Assembly (NCBI GenBank): GCA_038999435.1
Contig: JAVZYR010000019.1
Span: 1 to 10,615, forward strand
DNA from: Candidatus Aenigmatarchaeota archaeon
GTDB taxonomy: Archaea; Aenigmatarchaeota; Aenigmatarchaeia; QMZP01
Direction: 5' to 3'
DNA length: 10,615 nt
Shown here: positions 3 through 10,615 of the stretch, piece by piece
How the letters are laid out: every line of letters begins with the position of its first letter
Position numbering within the stretch: the first letter of the stretch is position 1
The notes under the pieces: generated by a model
Told to the model about the DNA's origin: nothing
Database searches by the model: none
The model's input: the letters and a program-made list of their open reading frames with translations, nothing else
Translations under genes and position numbers: made by a program

Positions 3-1202
3 TGCGCGGACAGTGCAAGATACACATTCGTCACACAAGAGCGTCCCTTCCCTGAAATCATAGGCCTGAGAACCGAGGTGACCCACACTTCTGTTGACAT
101 ACACTGGAATACCTTCCAGATTGTCAACACAACTGTTTATCTTATAAAAAACCAATCTACACTTCCTAACATGTCATCGTGGATGAGGACTTCCAATAGC
201 TCATACAGGACAGACCATTCTGCTCACTTTTCCTACCTTAAACCTGGGACAACATATGTTTTTGTCATAGAACACTGCGGTGAAGGAAGATGTAACAAGA
301 CAGCCCATAATTTTGTAGCAACTTTGAGCTGTTTTGACGGAATAAGAAACGGTGACGAACACGGTGTTGACTGTGGTGGACCGTGTGAGGCAGAATGCAT
401 AGAGTGCACATGGTGTGGTGACAAGATAATACCCGTCTATCTTCAAGGTCCGCCTGAGGAGAAAATAGACATCGTTTTCGTCGCTTCTAATACGTCGTGG
501 GACTGGTTCCACAGAGCCAAGGTCGCGAAAAACACATATTCATCCAACAGAAGTGCTTTTATTAGCGTAGTGAGGGATTTGATTCAAAACTGGTATCTTG
601 AATTAAATACGCTGGTGAGTGAGCCGATACCTTCCAATTTCCGCGAGCGCTTCAATTTCTACTATTACTGGGACAATCGCAGTTTCGGTGATGCTTTCGA
701 TGGTTGTGCCGGCAGACTACCAGAAGCCTTCTGGACCGATGCACCATTCGCCGACGTCGGCGGTATACTTTATCCACCTCATTGGGTTAGCGGCGTGACA
801 GAGGCAGGAGGTTGTGCCAATGCTTTGGGTCCGCCCAGCCAGTTCAAGGGACCTGGTTTCAATGGCTATGTCACCATTCATGAAAGTGGTCATGCAGTCT
901 TTGGTCTTGTTGACGAATACTGTGGGAACACTACCTATTCGCAGAACGATCCGCTGGCAAACGTCTGGGGTTCGCTTGAGAACTGCACGAGGGACGTGGC
1001 TTCTACGACGAAGCATGATCCATCCAACTGCAGGCAGATAATGTGGGACGATTCAAGAACATCCGGAGTCGACTGTACGCGCAACTGGTGGAGGTGGAAC
1101 CCAGACCCAGAAATAATGGAATGTGCCTGTGGCAAGTTCGGGCCCATGTGCGTCAGGCACATAAATTACATGTTCGAGAGTAGCTGGAAATGGAGGAGAT
1201 GA
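3..1202 (+). CDS. Secreted/surface zinc metallopeptidase, M64 (IgA peptidase)-like, with FN3-like domain(s) and a Cys-rich module; 5' end lies upstream of the window
   Basis: The frame is open from base 3 (CADSARYTFVTQERPFPEIIGLRTEV...), so GTG78 is probably internal. FN3/purple-acid-phosphatase-N-like segment: THTSVDIHWNT...HSAHFSYLKPGTTYVFVIEHC. Cys motif CFDGIRNGDEHGVDCGGPC at 330-386. Catalytic domain has KIDIVFV...RFNFYYY, HESGHAVFGLVDEY at 879-920 (the HExxH...LxDEY pattern of M64 peptidases) and a C-terminal IM...FGPMC. Stop TGA 1200-1202. Confidence 0.85.
   Translation, partial: CADSARYTFVTQERPFPEIIGLRTEVTHTSVDIHWNTFQIVNTTVYLIKNQSTLPNMSSWMRTSNSSYRTDHSAHFSYLKPGTTYVFVIEHCGEGRCNKTAHNFVATLSCFDGIRNGDEHGVDCGGPCEAECIECTWCGDKIIPVYLQGPPEEKIDIVFVASNTSWDWFHRAKVAKNTYSSNRSAFISVVRDLIQNWYLELNTLVSEPIPSNFRERFNFYYYWDNRSFGDAFDGCAGRLPEAFWTDAPFADVGGILYPPHWVSGVTEAGGCANALGPPSQFKGPGFNGYVTIHESGHAVFGLVDEYCGNTTYSQNDPLANVWGSLENCTRDVASTTKHDPSNCRQIMWDDSRTSGVDCTRNWWRWNPDPEIMECACGKFGPMCVRHINYMFESSWKWRR
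1192..1196 (+). promoter_or_regulatory. Shine-Dalgarno-like GGAGG for the 1204 CDS, inside the end of the peptidase gene
   Basis: GGAGG at 1192-1196 lies 7 nt before ATG1204. The peptidase stop (1200-1202) is 1 nt from the next ATG, suggesting translational coupling. Confidence 0.65.
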
Positions 1203-1203
1203 G

Positions 1204-1800
1204 ATGAAAAAGGTTGCAGCCTTTCTAATGCTTGCATTTTTGTTACTGCCATATCCAGCTTTTGCCGAAGACCTGACTAAGACGATAAAAATTGAACTCA
1301 GCATAAAAAACGATAGCTTCAGCGAAATCTCAAAGACAATCGTTTACTCTCATCCGCCAGACCTCGGTCTGCAACAAGGGCCTTTCATTGCAAAGATCAT
1401 CTCTGTAGATGGCTCGCTGTTTGGAGAATTCAATATCTGGGATCCGAGAATCCAAATGGGCGATGAAATTGTTATGTATGAAAATGGAACAGTTGGCAGG
1501 ATAGAGGGCAAGGTTGTCCGCACAGATGAGGCCAGGTTCTCGGTCATGCTTCCATTTCATCGAGAAATAAAAGTTTTAGAAATTTATGACAAGGAAAGCG
1601 GCGAGAAGATGCTCTCAGTCGAGCTTGCTTCTCTTATAGGCGAATTCTGCGAAACCCATAAAGAAGACTCAGACTGCGGCGGCGCTGTCACACAGATGAA
1701 TTATCTTCTTATTATAGCCCTAATATTTTTAGTCGTTGTAATAATTTTGTTTTTTTCTGTCAAAAAACTCAAAGGACCGAAAGCAGGAAAAAAGCGCTGA
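1204..1800 (+). CDS. Membrane-anchored exported protein of unknown function (signal peptide, beta-rich domain, C-terminal TM helix, basic tail); probable partner of the peptidase
   Basis: MKKVAAFLMLAFLLLPYPAFA is a typical Sec signal with an AFA cleavage site. It is followed by a ~125-aa beta-rich domain, a FCETHKEDSDC Cys pair, the hydrophobic YLLIIALIFLVVVIILFFSV and the tail KKLKGPKAGKKR. Confidence 0.85.
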   Translation: MKKVAAFLMLAFLLLPYPAFAEDLTKTIKIELSIKNDSFSEISKTIVYSHPPDLGLQQGPFIAKIISVDGSLFGEFNIWDPRIQMGDEIVMYENGTVGRIEGKVVRTDEARFSVMLPFHREIKVLEIYDKESGEKMLSVELASLIGEFCETHKEDSDCGGAVTQMNYLLIIALIFLVVVIILFFSVKKLKGPKAGKKR

Positions 1801-1916: not shown

Positions 1917-4900
1917 ATGCATAAGAAATTTATAAAAAAAGGAAATAAAACCTTTGGTCCCTATTACTATACAACAATTAGAGATTCTGGTAAGATAAAA
2001 TCTTTTTATCTTGGCCAAGATGAAGAGATTGCAAGGCAAAAGGAAAAAGAAATAAAGAAAAAATATGATGTGAAAGAGTTATCCCACACATTGTCATATG
2101 AGCAAGAGCCCAGGCCCGTGCTGCCATACATTACATTAGCACTGCTGATAACAGCTGTGCTTGTATTTCCATTTATCCTACAATTCAGACTAAATGGTCT
2201 TTTCATAGGTTTAGAGTCGGTAAACTATGAAAAGATTCAAGATGACCCAACATTTGATGTAATTGTAGATTCTGTGAATTTTGAGGGTAATAATCTGGTC
2301 GTGAATTTTCATCATAATTCAGAGCAGGCACAACCCGTTTTAGTTATGGGAAATATTTCTTTCTCTCTCAGTACAGACATCCTGGGCCCGGGCGAAACAG
2401 CGCAATTAGCAGTTCAGGATTGGGATGGCAGTTATTTTGAGCTAAAGGTTGGAAATGAATCAGAGATTATCGCATTTTATATCAAGGCTAAAAACAGGGC
2501 AGAGCAAAATTTACCGCACGAAAATCAAACAGAAAATGTCACAGAGCCCCTTATCGAATCACCTACATCAATTGATTATGAAAAAATAGAGGCAGATTCT
2601 GAATTTGACCTGATAATCGATTCGGTGAGTTATGAGGGTAGTGACTTGATTGTCGATTTTCATCACACCTCAAGTCAGACCCAACCTATAACAATTGAAG
2701 GTGATGTGGTGTATGAGCTAAGCCACAGCCAGGCAGAAGGTGGCCAACAAGTCCATCTAAAGGTATTTGACTGGACAGAAGAGAAGTATTTTGAAATTAA
2801 GATCGGAAACCAGTCAGAGATTGTAGGTTTTGGTAAGATACCTGAATACAATATTAATACTGAGATTTTTGATGCGGAAGGACAGCCAGTGCCTGCAGAA
2901 ATCATTTTTGAAAAACCAGAGATAGGCAAAATGAGAATAACAGAATCAGCAACAAAAATGAAAAAGGGCAAATATGATATAAGGGTCAGAACAGCCGGGC
3001 TGCCTATAAAAGAGATTTGGATAAAAAATGTTGATGTCAAATCAGATATATCCGATTTTATCAAACTTGATGATGTGCCAGAGTCTATAGGTCCTGCTGA
3101 TGCTGTTGAAGTTTATGCAATTGACCCAACAGCGCTGAACTTTACAGAAGCTCTTGTGACAGCAACAGCGAAAGGTACAGAACTTTACAAATGCAAGGAA
3201 TGGGATTTCACAGAGCGAAAATGCAATGGCGAGTGGATTTACTTGATGAACATTGTTCCTGGTGAAGATTATTCCTTTGTTTTAACCCCAGAAGACCCTG
3301 CTTATGCAGAATATAATTATAGCAATTATCAGATAGAGGGCCATATGGCTTGGAGTTCTGATAATGCTTTGTCGAAACCACCTTCTGGAGGCCCTGCAGT
3401 ACCTAACGAAAAAGAATTAAATTCTACACAATATAGCCAAATAAATGCTTCTGACAATGTTCGAGCTTCTGTTGCAAGTGCAAATTATAGAACCTTTAGA
3501 TTTATGTTCAAGCTTAACCAAAGTGCAAGCCAGATTGTTAATCTAACAATTGCATGGGAAGGCTATACTACTGGAGCAAATGCTGCACAGAGACGAGTTG
3601 ATTTATATGTTTGGAATTTTACAAGTAATTCCTGGAGCGCTTCTTTAGCCAATAACAACCTTGCTGCTGATTATTGGTTAATATATACCTTTGCACCAAG
3701 TTCGCCTGAAGAATTTAAACATATAATAAACTCTACTAATCATATAATCTTTCTTGTTGAAACGCCAGATCCTCCTGGAACACAGACTTTCTATACCGAT
3801 ACAGCAAATATTTCTGTTTGGTATAATCTTCCTCCAAATGTTACTCTTGTTTCACCTCCTGATGGAAATGTTACAACAAGCAATGCTGTCAATTTCACTT
3901 GCAATGCAACTGATGATTTACAGCTTAGCAGTATAACATTTTACTGGAACTACAGCGGCTCTTGGCAAGCAAACGGCACTGTTTCGGTTTCAGGAACAAG
4001 CAACCAAACAACATTCGAAAGAACAAATTTAAGTAATGGCGCGATATTATGGAATTGCCAAGCATGTGATAATGAATCTGCATGCTCTTTTGCTCCTGCC
4101 AACTGGACTGTAACTGTTAATTACACTCCAGACAGCCCTCCAACTGTCACTCTAAGCTATCCACCTGACAATTATTATAATGACACAAGCCAATATGTTA
4201 ATTTAACATTCAATGCAAGTGTAACTGATGATTATGCCCTTGTAAATTGCTCATTGTGGCACAACTATACGGGAACATGGCATCTAAATCAGACACAAAC
4301 AGTTACAGGAACAAGCAATGTTACTAATTTCACTCTTGATGATTTAACAAACAAAACTTTCATTTGGAACATTCAATGTTATGACAATGCAAGTCAGTCA
4401 GCTTTTGCTCCAGCAAACAGGACCGTGATTTTAAATTGGACCCCTTACAATACATCTATCGATATCTCTCTTCTGAGGCTTGATTATTCAGCATTCCCAA
4501 CAAATGACAGCTACAACTTTATAGGAGAAGCGCTGGAGATGGGTGAAATGCATCATTTTTGGCCTGCTGTAAATTACAGCTATGCAAATGGTAGCCCTGT
4601 TTTAGGTGCAGATATAAGCGCAATCTTTGGTAAAGATGCAGGCATTTATTATGGTTATTTTGGTTTCGACCCTCCACACATCCATAATCACACAAAAATA
4701 TACGATTTTGCCCTCAAAGAAGACAACTATATTGCTGTCAACTTCACAGATGTATATAATTTAACAGAATCAAATTCGTTAAGCATAACATTTGCAGTGT
4801 GTAAGGTTGGGCAGAGCGATGTAACAGGAGAGGTGAGGATAAATAATCAGCTTAGTTGGACAGGCTCGAGCCTGATTGGAAATATATTCTCAAATCAAAC

Positions 4901-7900
4901 CTCGCAATGCCCATCAGATAGTTTGGTTTATTTAAAGAACATCAGCGCTTTCAAAGATGCTGATTCGTTTTACATCATGATCGGCTGTCCGAACTGTAGC
5001 AACAGCGAATACTATGTTGTGCCAAGGACAAACAATACAAATGGGTGGTTTGTGCCAAACAGAAGCCTTCAAACAGAAAGTGGGGATAGTGGATGGCAAT
5101 TGATGCCTGATAGTGAGCAAAACAATTGGGTTATTTATGTGCATAAATATTTTGACAATTTCTCAGACTTCAATTTCACCTACAATTCAAGCACAGGCCT
5201 CTATATAGACAAATCAAAGATATATGTGACAGAAGAAGATAGCATAACAAACATCACAGCCAATGCAAGCAAGCAAGACCACGAGCCAGCTACAAAGACA
5301 GAGTATATAGTAAATCTACCAATTGGTACTATAGTAAATATAGATGACCTGATAGATTCGGTAACAGTACATCAAAATCCACAAAATGGCACAACAGTTG
5401 AATATGGCAATATAACACTCATATGGAGCGCTTTCCATCCAAGAGGTATAGATTATTTCTATTCAAATCTCACATATGCAAACGGCTCAACAATTTCATA
5501 TAATGATACTGCTTTTGTTGTGCATTGGCCAGCGGAGCTGTTCACAGAGATAAATACTATTTATAATCTCACGGTTTGGGCAAATTCCACTACAGGTCAG
5601 AATGAGTCAGAAGTATTATGGTTTTATGTCAATGACACCCTTGCTCCATCTATTTACTACAATCCAAACACCACTGCAAACGGGACATATAGCAAAAATT
5701 GGATTTTCATCAATGTCACATGTTCTGATCTAAAAAAGGATACTGTTATTTTGAATTGGAATGGCTCAAATGAAAGCTTTGACAACAACGAAGGTGATAT
5801 TTATTGGGAAAACAAAACTGGACTGAATGAGGGCATTTATACATTCTATGCATGGTGCAACGACACATCAGGAAATAGCAATCAAACTGAGACAAGGATC
5901 ATAACAATCTATTTTAACAAAGCACCTCAAATATCTCTCAACGAACCATCAAACAACACTCAATTAAATGATACGCAGGATATGAATTTCAATTTCACAG
6001 CAACAGACGATCTGAACACAACATTAAATTGTTCGATTTATCTTGATGACAATTTAAATCAAACCAATTCATCAACACTAAATAATACATTGACAAACTT
6101 CTTAATCCAGGGCATAAGTTATGGCAGCCATAACTGGTCTATAAGTTGCACAGATGGAGAGCTGAGCAATATTTCTGAGACAAGATATTTTGTGATTGCT
6201 GATACGATTGGCCCAACAATCCTATTTGTCTCACCAACCCCTGACAACAATACAGTGCTGAGTCGAGATTGGGTAACAATCAATGCAAGTGTGTCAGATA
6301 CAGCAAGTAATATCGACGCTTGCATCCTTGAATGGAATGGCTCAAACGAAAGCATGACAAAAGTTGGCTCAGGGCCAAATGTAACTTGTTATGCTAATAA
6401 GACAGGCTTAACAGGGAACACAAACTACACTTACAAAGTTTATGCAAACGACACAAGCAACAACTGGAATGTTTCTGAAACAAGAAATGTATTTATAGGA
6501 ACACCTCCTAGCGTTGTGATATTGCATCCTTTGCCAGGAGAAGTCTTTGATGAGAATGATGTTGTCGTGCTCGTCGCAAACATCACGGACCCCGACGGCT
6601 TGAACCTGACAGTAGCAGAAGTAACCCTACCGAACTCTTCGAAGCAGAATGTTACACTATACATTCCGCCAAACGCTGATAACTTTGACACAAACACAGT
6701 CGGAATTGCGTGGGCAATAGAAAATCATACAGGAGCAGGTCAGATATGCGTTGCAGACATTGATACAACCATCCCTGACATGGCTTACACAGCAATAAGC
6801 GGAAATGGTTCACCATTTACAGATACATACTGTGGCTTAGTTTCTATGCATCCTATATGTGGCGATTTTGACATGAATATAACATTCAATGTTACTTATG
6901 AAGAAGGTATAGATTATGCGATGCTATTCGCTCTCACAGAAAACCCAACAATAATCGGCTCATCAAAGATTGTTTTCATGTCAATAGGAAATTGGACAGG
7001 TTATGGCAGGACATATGATGTCTTTATAAACGATGGGAACATATCAGACTACATCTCGGAAAGGCCAACTAACGACACCTACGGCAAATTCAGAATAAAG
7101 AGAGAAGGAAACAATTTCACATTCTACACTTGGAACAATACAGCGAATGATTGGTACGAGGAAGCACATGTTGAGAACGTAAACATGCCTTGTGCCTTGT
7201 TCATCAACCTTGAATCAGAAACAGCAGAAATTGGCTGGGGGAGCATAAATGTCACATGGGATGATTTAATCATCAACGGCTCCCAAGCATACACAGGGAT
7301 GTTCTCAGATACCTCAGTAAGCGGAATCTATAATGTCACATTCATTGCAAGAGACAATCTTGGTGCAATAAATGACAGTGAACAGACATACTTCAATATT
7401 TCAGAAATAAATGATGCTCCAAGCACACCATACATATTACAACCTTCTCCAGGATGGATTATACGAAATACTGTTGAAATCCGATGGAGTGATGTTTATG
7501 ACGAAGAAAATGACAGCCTTCAGTTTAACATTACTTTGTTAAATCCTGATTACAGCGAGAACGCAACGATCGTCACAAATTATGGCAATGCAAGCACTAC
7601 GAGCTACGAGTGGAACACAACGCTGTTCCAAGACGGCAACTATTCCTTGAAAGTTGTTGTTTTTGAGAATGAAACAGCTGAAGGGCTTTCATCGTATAGT
7701 ATTATGACAGGTACATTCAGCATAGACAACACCCCGCCAGCAATAGCTTTTATTCCTCCAACAGAAACAAGTGGCTCAATAATAAACAGAAATTACATAC
7801 AGGTGAATGTCACAGCTGATGACGAGCATCTTGACTACATCGAAGTATACTTGTACAATTCCACTCATTTATTAAATCAGACAATGAGCGTGTCTTCGCC

Positions 7901-10615
7901 TTACTTTGTGAATTTCACAGACCTGTCTGATGGTGTGTATTACTTCAATGCAAGCGCTTATGATGCTGCAGGCAATATCAATTCAACAGAAACAAGAACA
8001 ATAATTCTTGATACACAAGCTCCTAACTATAGCGATGATCAAGATGATTCAGGGGGAAGCGTTGTCGAAGGAACAATTGTAAATATCAGTGTTTTATGGC
8101 AGGATAATCATCAGCTTGATACAGCAATATTTAGAACAAACCAATCAGGTTCATGGCAAAATGTTTCAACCTGTGCTTTGAGTGGAGCAATTTCATGGTG
8201 TAACACGACAATCGACACAAGTGGAGATGCAGGCAAATGCATTTGCTGGAATCAATGGGCAAATGACAGTGCAGGCAACTTAAATACCAGCATGTCTGAA
8301 ACAGCTCACTGCTTTAATGTAACAGCTATAGATAAACCACCAATCTGGTCAGACAACCAAACAAACATTCCGGCAATATACAGCCTCAATGCAAGCCAAT
8401 TTAACATAACATGGCAGGATGATGTAGAGGTGTCAGTCGTTTTGATTGAAGGTAATTGGTCTGGAGAACCTAAAAATTATACAATGGCTCTGATTGCTGG
8501 AAATTCCAGCAATGGGACATATTCTTATTCACAGGTCCTCCCTGCAGGCACATTTTATTGGCGTTCGCGGGCCAATGATACGGCCAATCAATGGAATACC
8601 TCAGATGTGTGGATATTTACAATCAACAAAGCAACAACAAGCCTCAATCTCTCAGCACAGCCTGCCTGGTCAGTAACATACGGCACTCAAACAAACATAA
8701 CATGCTCTGCAAACAACAACGAAGCCCAGATAGCCCTATACAGAAATGACAGCCAAGTTGCATCCGGCTATGGCCTTGTCTATGAAAGCACAACGCTCGC
8801 AGCCGGCCTTTGGAACTATACATGCAACACATCAGGTTCACAGAACTGGACTGCTGCATCTGTCTCAAATCTGTTGACAGTCAACAAAGCACCAACGACT
8901 GTCAACCTAACGCTGAATGGCGTTGAGGACAACATCACCATCACATATCCACAGACAGTCACAGCCATCTTCTGGACAAATGCACTGACAGCCACATTGT
9001 ATAGAAATGGCACAGATGTCAGCTCTGAAAACAACACCGCTATAATCTTGCCAGCAGGATATTGGAATTACACAGTCATCAATCTAGGCAATGAGAACTA
9101 TACAGGCAGCAGCAAGACGCTCTTTGCAACTGTCAATAAAGCAACATCCTCATGCTCCTTAACATTCAATCCACCATCCCCAACAACCTATGGCATCGCC
9201 ACAACCGCAACCTGTACATGCACAAATCCTGAGGCAAGCGCAAGGCTATGGAGAAATGGTACAGACATCACAAGCGAGAATGGCACTGCCATCATCCTAC
9301 CAGCCGGTGCATGGTCATATGTCTGCAATGTCAGCGAAAGCCAGAACTACACCTCAGCCAGCAACAGCTCGATGTATGTTGTGAACAAGGCAACTTCTAT
9401 TCTCAACCTAACGCTGAATGGTGTGGCAGGAAATCTTACAGTGCTAGTGAATAGCTCTGTAAACATAACAGCAAAACTCATAAACCCAACTTCAGGTTAC
9501 ATCGAGTTGTACGAAAATGGCACTATGATAAACAATGGTTCTTCTCCACTGACAAATATAACCTATTACAACATGACAGGGCTGTGGAACATTACAGCTA
9601 TATATCCTGAAACCCAGAATTATACTGGAGCATCAAAAACACATTGGGTAATTGTTACAAATGATACAACTCCACCCATTGTCAGCATTCAGCCATCTGC
9701 AACGAGCCTAATAGTAGGCCAGACCCTGCACGCAAGCTGTTCAGCAACAGACAATATAGGCGTAGCCAGTGTGAACATGAGCATTGATGGCAGCACGTTA
9801 TGTTCTGGTACAACTTCATGTTCTGGCAGTTGGACAGCACAGGCAGGAAACTGGATTTTGACTTGCTATGCAAAGGACCTGTTTGGCAACACAGCCAAAT
9901 CATCGATTGCCATAAACGTTAGATATCCAACACATCACAGACCACCTGCACAACCACCAACATATCAGTTTCCAATAGATATCATATCCCCTGAGCAACC
10001 TGCAGATATTGGTATGAATATTGGACCACTGAGAGGGCTTTCAATTGCAGTTGGTCAAAAAAACAAAAATGTAAACATAAACATATCTGCCAAAGAATGC
10101 CCGCCCATAAACACAACCCGGCCTGTATATGCATGTTTTGAAATCGATCATAACATCAGTAATATCACACAAGTTAATATCAGCTTTTGCGTTAACAATA
10201 GCTGGATTGCTAAAAACAATGTTACAAGTTCTATATTGGCAAGGCTAACTGAAGGCTGGGACAGTTTGTTGACAATAAAAACCAAAGAAAATGAAAACGA
10301 GACATGCTATGAAGCCATCAGTCCGAACCTTTCATGGTTTGCAATACTTGGCTTAACAATCCCACAAGTTTGTCAGCCATTGGCCAAACAGTGTGCTGGA
10401 TATGCATTGCAGCAATGCAATATCGAGGGCACGGGTTGGGTTGATATTGAAAATTGCACATATGGCTGTAATATCAGCATGCTGTCATGCAATCCAGCCC
10501 CAACCCCTGTTTACATCTGTGAGCCTGGTCAGAGGAGATGCGCAGGCAGGGTTGTGCAGGAATGCAATGGCACGGCATGGCTTGATGTGGAGGAATGCAG
10601 GCTTCTTTGTTTTGA
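1917..10615 (+). CDS. Giant multidomain cell-surface glycoprotein/adhesin (>=2899 aa, 3' end beyond the window): basic N-terminal domain, TM, Ig-like repeats, lectin-like domains, PGF-pre-PGF domain, Cys-rich repeats
   Basis: Manual translation from ATG1917 (MHKKFIKKGNKTFGPYYY...) to ...ECNGTAWLDVEECRLLCF at 10613 found no in-frame stop. Its absence from the ORF track agrees with this. TM helix at about 2118-2180; recurrent Ig signatures (D/N-x-x-PP, YxxxxxAND/DxxGN, ETRxxxI); PGF-pre-PGF-like domain near the end. Confidence 0.93.
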   Translation, partial: MHKKFIKKGNKTFGPYYYTTIRDSGKIKSFYLGQDEEIARQKEKEIKKKYDVKELSHTLSYEQEPRPVLPYITLALLITAVLVFPFILQFRLNGLFIGLESVNYEKIQDDPTFDVIVDSVNFEGNNLVVNFHHNSEQAQPVLVMGNISFSLSTDILGPGETAQLAVQDWDGSYFELKVGNESEIIAFYIKAKNRAEQNLPHENQTENVTEPLIESPTSIDYEKIEADSEFDLIIDSVSYEGSDLIVDFHHTSSQTQPITIEGDVVYELSHSQAEGGQQVHLKVFDWTEEKYFEIKIGNQSEIVGFGKIPEYNINTEIFDAEGQPVPAEIIFEKPEIGKMRITESATKMKKGKYDIRVRTAGLPIKEIWIKNVDVKSDISDFIKLDDVPESIGPADAVEVYAIDPTALNFTEALVTATAKGTELYKCKEWDFTERKCNGEWIYLMNIVPGEDYSFVLTPEDPAYAEYNYSNYQIEGHMAWSSDNALSKPPSGGPAVPNEKELNSTQYSQINASDNVRASVASANYRTFRFMFKLNQSASQIVNLTIAWEGYTTGANAAQRRVDLYVWNFTSNSWSASLANNNLAADYWLIYTFAPSSPEEFKHIINSTNHIIFLVETPDPPGTQTFYTDTANISVWYNLPPNVTLVSPPDGNVTTSNAVNFTCNATDDLQLSSITFYWNYSGSWQANGTVSVSGTSNQTTFERTNLSNGAILWNCQACDNESACSFAPANWTVTVNYTPDSPPTVTLSYPPDNYYNDTSQYVNLTFNASVTDDYALVNCSLWHNYTGTWHLNQTQTVTGTSNVTNFTLDDLTNKTFIWNIQCYDNASQSAFAPANRTVILNWTPYNTSIDISLLRLDYSAFPTNDSYNFIGEALEMGEMHHFWPAVNYSYANGSPVLGADISAIFGKDAGIYYGYFGFDPPHIHNHTKIYDFALKEDNYIAVNFTDVYNLTESNSLSITFAVCKVGQSDVTGEVRINNQLSWTGSSLIGNIFSNQTSQCPSDSLVYLKNISAFKDADSFYIMIGCPNCSNSEYYVVPRTNNTNGWFVPNRSLQTESGDSGWQLMPDSEQNNWVIYVHKYFDNFSDFNFTYNSSTGLYIDKSKIYVTEEDSITNITANASKQDHEPATKTEYIVNLPIGTIVNIDDLIDSVTVHQNPQNGTTVEYGNITLIWSAFHPRGIDYFYSNLTYANGSTISYNDTAFVVHWPAELFTEINTIYNLTVWANSTTGQNESEVLWFYVNDTLAPSIYYNPNTTANGTYSKNWIFINVTCSDLKKDTVILNWNGSNESFDNNEGDIYWENKTGLNEGIYTFYAWCNDTSGNSNQTETRIITIYFNKAPQISLNEPSNNTQLNDTQDMNFNFTATDDLNTTLNCSIYLDDNLNQTNSSTLNNTLTNFLIQGISYGSHNWSISCTDGELSNISETRYFVIADTIGPTILFVSPTPDNNTVLSRDWVTINASVSDTASNIDACILEWNGSNESMTKVGSGPNVTCYANKTGLTGNTNYTYKVYANDTSNNWNVSETRNVFIGTPPSVVILHPLPGEVFDENDVVVLVANITDPDGLNLTVAEVTLPNSSKQNVTLYIPPNADNFDTNTVGIAWAIENHTGAGQICVADIDTTIPDMAYTAISGNGSPFTDTYCGLVSMHPICGDFDMNITFNVTYEEGIDYAMLFALTENPTIIGSSKIVFMSIGNWTGYGRTYDVFINDGNISDYISERPTNDTYGKFRIKREGNNFTFYTWNNTANDWYEEAHVENVNMPCALFINLESETAEIGWGSINVTWDDLIINGSQAYTGMFSDTSVSGIYNVTFIARDNLGAINDSEQTYFNISEINDAPSTPYILQPSPGWIIRNTVEIRWSDVYDEENDSLQFNITLLNPDYSENATIVTNYGNASTTSYEWNTTLFQDGNYSLKVVVFENETAEGLSSYSIMTGTFSIDNTPPAIAFIPPTETSGSIINRNYIQVNVTADDEHLDYIEVYLYNSTHLLNQTMSVSSPYFVNFTDLSDGVYYFNASAYDAAGNINSTETRTIILDTQAPNYSDDQDDSGGSVVEGTIVNISVLWQDNHQLDTAIFRTNQSGSWQNVSTCALSGAISWCNTTIDTSGDAGKCICWNQWANDSAGNLNTSMSETAHCFNVTAIDKPPIWSDNQTNIPAIYSLNASQFNITWQDDVEVSVVLIEGNWSGEPKNYTMALIAGNSSNGTYSYSQVLPAGTFYWRSRANDTANQWNTSDVWIFTINKATTSLNLSAQPAWSVTYGTQTNITCSANNNEAQIALYRNDSQVASGYGLVYESTTLAAGLWNYTCNTSGSQNWTAASVSNLLTVNKAPTTVNLTLNGVEDNITITYPQTVTAIFWTNALTATLYRNGTDVSSENNTAIILPAGYWNYTVINLGNENYTGSSKTLFATVNKATSSCSLTFNPPSPTTYGIATTATCTCTNPEASARLWRNGTDITSENGTAIILPAGAWSYVCNVSESQNYTSASNSSMYVVNKATSILNLTLNGVAGNLTVLVNSSVNITAKLINPTSGYIELYENGTMINNGSSPLTNITYYNMTGLWNITAIYPETQNYTGASKTHWVIVTNDTTPPIVSIQPSATSLIVGQTLHASCSATDNIGVASVNMSIDGSTLCSGTTSCSGSWTAQAGNWILTCYAKDLFGNTAKSSIAINVRYPTHHRPPAQPPTYQFPIDIISPEQPADIGMNIGPLRGLSIAVGQKNKNVNINISAKECPPINTTRPVYACFEIDHNISNITQVNISFCVNNSWIAKNNVTSSILARLTEGWDSLLTIKTKENENETCYEAISPNLSWFAILGLTIPQVCQPLAKQCAGYALQQCNIEGTGWVDIENCTYGCNISMLSCNPAPTPVYICEPGQRRCAGRVVQECNGTAWLDVEECRLLCF
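2217..2831 (+). repeat. Two tandem copies of an ~87-aa beta-rich FHH domain within the giant CDS (2217-2477 and 2568-2831)
   Basis: SVNYEKIQDDPTFDVIVDSVNFEGNNLVVNFHHNSEQAQP...DW...YFELKVGNESEIIAF aligns with SIDYEKIEADSEFDLIIDSVSYEGSDLIVDFHHTSSQTQP...DW...YFEIKIGNQSEIVGF. Confidence 0.9.
3312..3824 (+). other. Probable jelly-roll (galactose-binding/CBM-like) domain within the giant CDS
   Basis: Strand pattern FRFMFKL...IVNLTIAWEGY...VDLYVWNFTSNSW...HIINSTNHIIFLV...FYTDTANISV resembles CBM-like beta-sandwiches; recognised by eye only. Confidence 0.5.
3825..8624 (+). repeat. Array of about 12 divergent ~95-105-aa Ig-like domains within the giant CDS
   Basis: Recurrent starts (NLPPNVTLVSP, DSPPTVTLSYP, DTLAPSI, NKAPQISLNEP, DTIGPTILFVSP, NDAPSTP, DNTPPAIAFIPP, DTQAP, DKPP) and ends (WNCQACDN, WNIQCYDN, YAWCNDTSGN..ETR, YANDTSNN..ETR, AYDAAGN..ETR). 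Residual DNA identity: TGGAATGGCTCAAAYGAAAGC at 5757-5777 and 6333-6353 (20/21). Confidence 0.8.
6672..7280 (+). other. Concanavalin A-like lectin/glucanase beta-sandwich domain inserted in an Ig domain
   Basis: DNFD...W, ICGDFDMNITF, GKFRIKREGNNFTFYTW...W and INVTWDDLII match the ConA-like (GH43 C-terminal/DUF1349-type) pattern by eye. Confidence 0.7.
8625..9657 (+). repeat. Four tandem ~84-aa NKA-type Ig-like (group 3-like) repeats
   Basis: Units start at NKA 8625, 8883, 9135 and 9384 (spacing 258, 252, 249 nt). Shared motifs are L(Y/W)xN(G/D), GxW(N/S) and (Q/E)N(Y/W)T. A 19-nt identity TCAACCTAACGCTGAATGG occurs at 8902-8920 and 9403-9421. Confidence 0.88.
9972..10352 (+). other. PGF-pre-PGF-like domain
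   Basis: VYACFEI...ITQVNISFCVNNSWIAKNNV...ILARL...WDSLLT...YEAISPNLSWFAILG matches the archaeal PGF-pre-PGF pattern (VYxYxxI...FxVxxxW...LxR...WxxLxT...YxAxxPGFSxFAI). Confidence 0.8.
10368..10615 (+). repeat. Cys-rich ~45-aa tandem repeats (second copy truncated by the window edge)
   Basis: VCQPLAKQCAGYALQQCNIEGTGWVDIENCTYGCNISMLSC aligns with ICEPGQRRCAGRVVQECN--GTAWLDVEECRLLCF. Confidence 0.85.

Follow-up and report, generated by a model that had tools for sequence, protein, structure and literature searches.

Zhang et al. (2012, PMC3482391) treated autoproteolytic domains of the ZU5, GPS and Nup96/98 types as one superfamily, which has members in large surface proteins of bacteria as well. 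The turn preceding the last strand is strained, as was established for ZU5 and Nup98 (PMC3210808), and the canonical self-cleavage motif of GAIN, MAIN, FIIND, PIDD and Nup98 is HXS, SFS or HFS (10.64898/2026.05.12.724683; PMC3210808). MAIN domains, the microbial GAIN-like autoproteolytic domains of bacteria and archaea, are cut in a conserved beta-turn, and the fragments stay joined non-covalently (Brogan and Rudner, bioRxiv 10.64898/2026.05.12.724683). Self-cleavage at Asp-Pro is described for the GDPH motif of VWD domains, where a neighbouring His polarises the bond, replacement of Asp by Asn abolishes cleavage, and the cut in FCGBP is reported to be stabilising (PMC10880436). In FrpC and ApxIVA, Asp-Pro scission proceeds via an Asp anhydride, with which a Lys amine can react ("clip-and-link"); the strained turn is shielded by the fold, and a putative proton donor has been discussed (PMC7078468). 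Here we describe a module of a giant surface protein, encoded in a 10,615-nucleotide stretch of DNA from a Candidatus Aenigmatarchaeota archaeon (GenBank assembly GCA_038999435.1, contig JAVZYR010000019.1; below, the window), in which an Asp-Pro dipeptide appears to occupy the position where ZU5- and GAIN-type domains are cut.

The window is an entire contig (positions 1-10615) of a genome of 549 kb, which is in 30 contigs and estimated to be 86% complete. It contains the gene of the giant surface protein (1917..10613, + strand; 2899 aa, open at the 3' end), and the module corresponds to residues 324-467 of the product (2886..3317, +). NCBI has a partial protein of identical sequence under the name Candidatus Aenigmatarchaeota. 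Two AlphaFold models, a structure search, the spacing of tandem copies and profile matches characterize it as a beta-sandwich of 11-13 strands, probably of the ZU5/GAIN type. The candidate scissile bond D460-P461 (3294..3299, +; GACCCT) is located in the turn between the last two strands and aligns on the [F/L]-S cleavage site of a sister group described below. It is followed by the last beta-strand, A462-Y466 (3300..3314, +; assigned by DSSP to residues 158-162 and 139-143 of the two models), with the consensus [G/A]-[F/Y]-x-E. To our knowledge, all self-cleaving ZU5, GAIN and Nup98 domains have been described with a Ser, Thr or Cys nucleophile just past the scissile bond, and in the literature searched we found neither an Asp-Pro version of a ZU5/GAIN/MAIN-type domain nor a description of Asp-Pro autoproteolysis in archaeal surface proteins. 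We assign a rough probability of 0.6 to the reading that the module belongs to, or closely resembles, the ZU5/GAIN/Nup98 self-cleaving superfamily, and that its canonical site has been replaced by Asp-Pro and a coupled Lys, at which it is predicted to cleave itself.

Several other residues of the module are relevant to this prediction. K425 (3189..3191, +) is coupled to the DP site by conservation and covariation and is the proposed catalytic helper. Next to it starts an invariant Cys pair, C426...C436 (3192..3224, +), which is probably a disulfide closing a 9-residue loop beside the site, as suggested by conservation (Cys in 395 and 394 of 398 rows, respectively, the remaining rows being gaps) and by coupling of the pair in the covariation analysis. 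The giant protein contains only six DP dipeptides, and the one at residues 460-461 is conserved beyond what chance would give. A second conserved Asp-Pro is D403-P404 in the motif YAIDPT (3123..3128, +). Asn often takes the place of its Asp (299 of 398 rows have D and 60 have N), which points to a structural turn, and P404 is coupled to K425, D460 and P461. A sequence-only reading of the window, made earlier, had given sequence and coordinates around D460-P461 correctly, with VEVYAIDPT beginning at residue 397 (nt 3105) and PEDPAYAE at residue 458 (nt 3288).

The module has no sequence match in Pfam, NCBIfam or PDB (the PDB search with the module profile gave four irrelevant matches at E>=1.2). 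The best scores in ESM Atlas, 0.82 (CarboxypepD_reg-like) and 0.79, were under the useful range. With residues 300-520 as query, 57 giant proteins of 1.6-5 thousand aa were retrieved at E<=0.01 among 603 candidates, those with names belonging nearly all to Woese-, Pace-, Nano-, Micr- or Aenigmatarchaeota. PF27237.1 occurs in the precomputed annotation of three of the 57 (P0002, P0006, and P0044) and is probably not the module. A profile built from 24 module copies matched 1068 representative proteins at E<=1e-3, of which 855 were left at E<=1e-10 and 486 at E<=1e-30, and the carriers are mostly giant surface proteins of DPANN archaea with 1-7 copies each. The copy and conservation counts given here cover 190 of these 1068 proteins, which together contain 387 copies: 77 proteins have one copy, 64 two, 28 three, 12 four, 5 five, 3 six, and one has seven. 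The module often lies far from the N-terminus and frequently forms tandem arrays of up to five adjacent copies with a period of about 140 aa, which equals the module length. In addition, all 80 loci kept from a scan of species-representative genomes come from genomes titled as archaeal metagenome-assembled or single-cell genomes, mostly DPANN; as that scan used DP-containing patterns, it was left out of the conservation counts.

Conservation of the DP dipeptide was one of the points at which, according to the sequence-only reading, the idea of autoproteolysis might fail; the dipeptide proved to be near-invariant, being present in 318 of the 353 copies that cover the motif. Position 460 is D in 327, E in 9 and N in 5 of about 360 copies. 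The same pattern was seen in a first set of 86 copies (D460 in 85, P461 in 81, K425 in 82, C426 and C436 in 86 each, W440 in 84, and E465 in 79). Among the 318 DP copies, the dipeptide is followed by [G/A] in 304, [F/Y] in 295 and E in 304, at the respective positions of the consensus; at P2, the residue before the Asp, there are D (84), E (83), T (56) and G (31), and P2' is G or A, His not being among the residues listed. The sequence beyond [G/A]-[F/Y]-x-E varies among copies, and the DP motif is kept regardless of the domains on either side of the module.

A tree for which the trait columns had been masked shows at least about 12 losses of DP. Among the 35 non-DP copies listed, none has an H-hydrophobic-S/T motif. 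In arrays of four or five adjacent modules there is regularly one internal copy with neither DP nor K425 (e.g., VR/E, KT/E, EK/E), and this internal unit is common to related proteins (P0059, P0062, P0064, P0066, P0070, and others), as if meant to stay uncut. Stretches starting with N-x-T-N-I-T-Y-x-K-I-K-D-D-P come after degenerate, non-DP copies of the module (L020, L058, L042, L062, and L079).

The same genome encodes a protein with a divergent module copy, P0192 (contig C9; L083:419-3586, +), a 1056-aa surface subtilase in which a signal or transmembrane (TM) segment is followed by Inhibitor_I9, Peptidase_S8 (E 1.4e-48), Ig-like domains, the module, a CGDG Cys-rich stretch and a C-terminal TM segment. 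Where the window module has T-P-E-D-P-A-Y, this copy reads N-H-L-S-A-F. It is recognized by neither Pfam nor NCBIfam, and a protein homologue search with it returned only P0192 itself; the sister group to which it belongs was reached via a genome search, in which it matched 101 of the 301 genomes sampled from the class. Forty of these loci (L084-L123) were counted: the two-Cys core is present in all 40, and [F/L]-S-[A/G]-[F/Y] in 38, the exceptions being SSSAF and ILSSAGF. The sister group is placed among ZU5/GAIN/MAIN domains by its motif and domain order, and not by a family model.

Comparison of 398 DP-type copies with the 40 sister copies by hhalign gave a probability of 99.1% in local mode (E 9.8e-19, 92 columns) and 99.2% in global mode (E 1.1e-18, 140 columns). 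The global alignment sets "DPgf~E" on "fSAF~i", that is, D460 on P1 (F/L), P461 on P1' (Ser), and A462-Y463 on A-F. In the DP type, P1' is 21 residues away from the conserved Trp; for the sister group the mode of this spacing is 22 (range 18-25). We regard as solid both the homology of the module to the group with the canonical motif and the correspondence of the two sites, and the location of Asp-Pro at the canonical scissile position suggests a second chemistry for the same cut.

The sister group also bears on the candidate helper residue. Its P2 position is occupied by H in 13 copies, S in 10, G in 10, N in 2, and other residues in 3. The equivalent of K425 is Lys in none of the 13 His-type copies and in 12 of the 25 copies without His (Fisher p 0.003, a value that ignores kinship), and the two residues look like alternative catalytic residues in the aligned sister copies. 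The occurrence of Lys only where the P2 His is absent fits position 425 as that of a catalytic residue beside the scissile bond.

Two AlphaFold2 models of the module were obtained, one for residues 305-480 from a 24-row alignment (pLDDT 91.2) and one for residues 324-470 from a 62-row alignment (pLDDT 87.7). Both are all-beta sandwiches with D460-P461 in the turn that links the penultimate strand (451-456) to the last one (462-466); K425 is in strand 10 of 13. VIA-align, which warns that Z<8 can reflect merely a common arrangement, was run against 48,161 representative chains and gave ankyrin ZU5 as the top match of model 1 (Z 5.7, rmsd 3.6, 112 residues aligned), and ranks 1-4 of model 2 were all ZU5 domains (Z 6.2, 6.0, 6.0, and, for CARD8, 5.2), the best having an rmsd of 3.6 over 106 aligned residues. 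Lower rows of model 2 include NLRP1 FIIND (Z 4.7), UNC5b (Z 4.4), the GAIN domains of BAI3 and CD97 (Z 4.5, 4.3, and 3.9), and six autoproteolytic domains of Nup98, Nup145 and Nup116 (Z 4.2-3.7). In total, 7 of the best 50 matches of model 1 and 15 of those of model 2 are of the ZU5/FIIND/GAIN/Nup98 type, 7r5j_U0, one of the 15, having been assigned to the autoproteolytic group by its residue range alone. When Foldseek candidates were re-ranked, ankyrin ZU5 (3f59_A) again came first (Z 5.7), and most others were transthyretin-like and partial, covering model residues 1-111.

Chains terminating at or close to the site where they themselves are cut, namely 1ko6_A (721-863), 7crv_C and 5hb6_A (to T994), align up to model residue 136-137, which corresponds to E459/D460. 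We take the Nup98 cut to lie between F863 and S864, a numbering derived from H862 of the HFS motif (PMC3210808). From structure alone, a ZU5-type fold is a lead, short of proof. The ZU5-like fold proposed in the sequence-only reading nevertheless gains support from two sides, as ZU5 is the best full-length match of both models (at Z<=6.2), and the homologous sister group carries the canonical motif.

Position 425 follows the state of the DP site closely. It is Lys in 315 of the 318 DP copies and Arg in none. Of 34 non-DP copies (35 in a wider count), 25 lack both D and P, and in these position 425 is K in 6 and E in 7; in the seven copies that lost P and kept D it is K in three, R in three and V in one. 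A divergence-matched control gave Lys in 37 of 38 DP copies versus 11 of 34 non-DP copies. Mean-field covariation on 400 non-redundant copies ranked K425-P461 first and K425-D460 second, both above the Cys pair, with the caveat that the K-DP signal comes largely from the approximately 34 degenerate copies. E465 covaries with Y452, Y400 and A418, and not with K425 or D460. The residues lost alongside DP (P404, T405, K425, K427, and T457) are all located, as judged by strand order, at the same end of the sandwich.

The proposed mechanism is as follows. The fold would keep the turn that precedes the last strand under strain, and there the side-chain carboxylate of D460 would attack the backbone carbonyl of the same residue, and P461 would depart as a new N-terminus, Pro being the best leaving amine among the residues. 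K425 could either protonate the Pro nitrogen or polarise the carbonyl, a role comparable to those of the His of GDPH and the proton donor discussed for FrpC. D460 would become an anhydride, which would then be hydrolysed, or might react with an amine. After the cut, strand 462-466 would stay hydrogen-bonded in the sandwich, and the membrane stub (residues 1-460) and the ectodomain (from residue 461) would remain joined non-covalently until force or unfolding separates them; opening of such a latch under force has been proposed for MAIN and GAIN (10.64898/2026.05.12.724683). Where a protein has many copies, the cuts might rather bring stabilization, as reported for the VWD domain of FCGBP. A bolder version, to which we give little credence, sees in the module a clip-and-link device: the Asp anhydride would be captured by K425 or by a Lys on the surface of a host cell, welding DPANN proteins to their hosts or to each other, and up to seven modules would form self-cut chains held together by donor-strand complementation.

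Several observations weigh against self-cleavage of the module or against the evidence on which it is predicted. Foldseek found nothing in PDB at E<=1e-3 for either model, and all Z-scores of the module are at most 6.2, below the caution line of 8. Non-cleaving ZU5 domains exist, among them those of ankyrin and UNC5. The local hhalign alignment ends at residue 445, so that the equivalence of the sites is derived from the global alignment, the [A/G]-[F/Y] anchor and the spacing, and the per-column confidence of the global alignment is low in the last hairpin. The DP and F/L-S types are separated by one change on the tree, with no sign of a repeated convergent swap; the swap, as far as the tree reflects it, is an event that happened once. 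Only two pairs of independent contrasts between K425 and DP fall on well-supported branches (p = 1, a comparison without power); the Fisher values therefore overstate the K-DP coupling, which is not established with phylogenetic control. The counts come from a limited sample of the family. Finally, no Cys pair spans the site in proteins with up to seven copies, and if all copies were cut, long chains would be held by single strands only.

The module might instead be an inactivated descendant of a ZU5/GAIN ancestor, one which lost the F/L-S site, and in which D-P and K425 form a rigid Asx-Pro turn with a buried Lys-Asp ion pair, this turn and salt bridge replacing the lost active site and stabilizing an uncut stalk domain. 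We hold this explanation to be unlikely, although it is to be taken seriously. Asp-Pro turns are structurally common, D403-P404 being another one within the module; arrays in which up to five copies adjoin each other are stalk-like, no disulfide crosses the site, the Z-scores of the fold searches are modest, and a positive charge at position 425 is kept in six of the seven copies with D but not P, as a salt bridge predicts. A plain ion pair, however, usually tolerates swaps, and there is no replacement of K by R in the 318 DP copies, while D is replaced by E in only 9 and by N in only 5 of about 360. Moreover, D, P and K are mostly lost jointly, as in the 25 of 34 non-DP copies without both D and P, and DP (90%) is conserved as strongly as F/L-S of the sister group (38/40).

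The strictness of the Lys, never Arg, and of the Asp, as well as their strong coupling, would equally be expected of an intramolecular, stabilizing isopeptide bond between K425 and D460, of the kind found in Gram-positive pilins and SpyCatcher, with the backbone left uncut. The module is part of the stalk of a giant adhesin-like protein, a setting in which cross-links of this type are usual (PMC12617251), and CnaB-type domains are found among the partial structural matches of model 1. These matches, however, span only model residues 4-106 and do not reach the DP site, and the survey consulted records such bonds between terminal strands and for no folds other than the CnaA-like and CnaB-like ones (PMC12617251), whereas K425 is in strand 10 of 13. 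No catalytic Glu is evident next to the pair, as the conserved E465 covaries with other residues, and an isopeptide bond would give no reason for conservation of Pro equal to that of Asp, nor would it explain the alignment of D-P on the F/L-S site; we consider it highly improbable. Only slightly better placed, and still improbable, is a site without covalent chemistry at the "top" of the sandwich (D403, K425, D460, and the disulfide loop), which would bind a ligand or metal or contact a neighbouring domain. Interdomain acidic Ca2+-binding motifs are common in tandem adhesin domains, and the residues lost with DP cluster at one end of the sandwich. A Lys within a Ca2+ site would be unusual, though, the motif is kept whatever domain adjoins the module, and the equivalence with the canonical scissile site would be left unexplained. 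We prefer the prediction of an Asp-Pro cut aided by K425, with the probability given above.

The giant protein begins with a Lys-rich cytoplasmic head of about 65 aa (window 1917-2114, KKGNKTFGPYYYTTIRDSGKIKSFYLG...), for which only a weak DUF6788 match was found (E 0.028). Its only hydrophobic segment (residues ~67-95; 2115..2201, +) is a predicted N-terminal signal-anchor: in a Kyte-Doolittle scan all 17 windows with values >=1.6 begin at residues 65-81. The hydrophobic segment of P0009, P0181 and P0127 is likewise not at the very start but at residues 57-71, whereas most family members start like a normal signal peptide. Two repeats of about 110 aa follow (residues 100-200 and 215-310; window 2214-2846), with no family match and no useful ESM Atlas match, and then the module. 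The domain immediately downstream (residues ~467-640; 3318..3836, +), which opens the sequon-rich ectodomain, has no family match either; the same follow-on domain is present behind the modules of P0006, P0008 and P0022. Ig-like domains occur within the long NxS/T-rich region, which extends towards a PGF-pre-PGF domain and Cys-rich repeats.

The sequence-only reading had put a compositional boundary exactly at DP. The shift is real, but it falls within about 40 residues after the dipeptide: there are 0-3 NxS/T sequons per 100-aa window before residue 500 and 4-10 over residues 501-2600; N+S+T per 30-aa window climbs from 4-6 to 8-11 at residue ~501; and K+E per 30-aa window is 5 at residues 471-500 and 0-2 from residue 501, except for 4 in the window 591-620. 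The same reading had the cut separate the membrane-bound N-terminal part from the adhesin. This fits the protein of the window, with its module close to the N-terminal anchor, but cannot be the general role of a module that occurs in 1-7 copies, often far from the N-terminus and in tandem.

The PGF-pre-PGF domain (residues 2737-2812; 10125..10352, +) is the only match of TIGR04213 in the giant protein (E 5.9e-10). A parallel between its motifs and those of the module, drawn in the sequence-only reading, found no support in profile comparison: hhalign gave a probability of 0.16% for the 24-row module profile against the single sequence, and 0.07-0.28% for the 398-copy module alignment against a five-row PGF-pre-PGF alignment. 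With all values below 1%, kinship of the two was rejected at the sequence level. After PGF-pre-PGF, the window ends in two Cys-rich repeats (10353-10613) of the form C-x-G-x-x-x-Q-x-C-N...W...C. The C-termini of the full-length homologues P0009 and P0181 consist of a TM helix and a basic tail, and are not of the PGF-CTERM type. By analogy with this helix in close homologues, the mature protein is probably held in the membrane at both ends, and the ectodomain would remain tethered to the cell after a cut. Archaeosortase A (TIGR04125) was not found in the genome, which, at 86% completeness, does not by itself show its absence.

Two open reading frames (ORFs) are located upstream of the giant gene. 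One of them (window 3-1202; 399 aa, open at the 5' end) has weak matches to Pur_ac_phosph_N/fn3 (E 7e-6) and Peptidase_M64 (E 0.003), and the other (window 1204-1800; 198 aa) belongs to no family. The G+C content of this region (0.44-0.52) is above that of the giant gene (0.33-0.47).

Should the Asp-Pro version prove to cut, a single fold would accommodate two unrelated chemistries for breaking one and the same peptide bond, and the sister group would serve as a natural control for it. Such a case would bear on fold strain, rather than the nucleophile, as the driver of autoproteolysis. Giant surface proteins of the symbiotic DPANN archaea would then be processed, force-sensitive assemblies and not single chains. 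The module is present in more than 1000 representative proteins, many of which take up a sizeable share of genomes of 0.5-1.3 Mb. The module would also be a compact, Ca2+-independent candidate among anhydride-generating, self-cleaving protein tags. Both the module and its sister group merit a family model, as neither matches Pfam or NCBIfam.

In its predicted chemistry the module is comparable to two known Asp-Pro systems, though it belongs to neither of them. In FrpC a Ca2+-dependent module of 177 aa and of novel fold follows downstream of the bond, with the DP at its N-terminal end (PMC7078468), whereas here the conserved module is upstream of the bond, with only 4-5 conserved residues after it, and no EF-hand-like loops were seen in the window module. 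With VWD domains it shares an Asp-Pro in a beta-turn adjoining a terminal strand of a beta-sandwich, and the possibility of many copies per protein, as in FCGBP, where 11 of 13 VWD domains carry the GDPH motif (PMC10880436). The folds are different, the VWD turn being between strands 1 and 2 and that of the module between the last two; G-D-P-H of VWD corresponds to E, D, T or G at P2 and G or A at P2' in the module, where no disulfide holds the cut strand, and there was no Pfam VWD match.

In fold the module appears closest to ZU5/FIIND domains, those of ankyrin, UNC5b, PIDD, CARD8 and NLRP1, which provided its best whole-module structural matches (Z 6.2, 6.0, 6.0, 5.2, 4.7, and 4.4). It differs from them in having no sequence match to Pfam ZU5, GPS or Nucleoporin2 and no buried Phe or Leu at P1, and its nucleophile would be the side chain of the P1 Asp instead of a Ser, Thr or Cys at P1'. 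As the window has E459-D460-P461 in place of the canonical [H/S]-hydrophobic-[S/T/C] motif, we class the module as derived from, and probably working like, the ZU5 superfamily, and not as a canonical member.

The nearest described kind is the MAIN domains. The text of the MAIN preprint does not contain the word "Asp" (10.64898/2026.05.12.724683). In MAIN, where the cut falls within HX-S, the domain adjoins the C-terminal anchor, whereas the window module has D-P, with a coupled Lys in place of His, lies beside an N-terminal anchor, and belongs to a family with 1-7 copies per protein. Both are beta-sandwiches in large, envelope-tethered surface proteins (10.64898/2026.05.12.724683), and the sister group of the module, as exemplified by P0192, combines the H-L/F-S motif with the domain order of MAIN.

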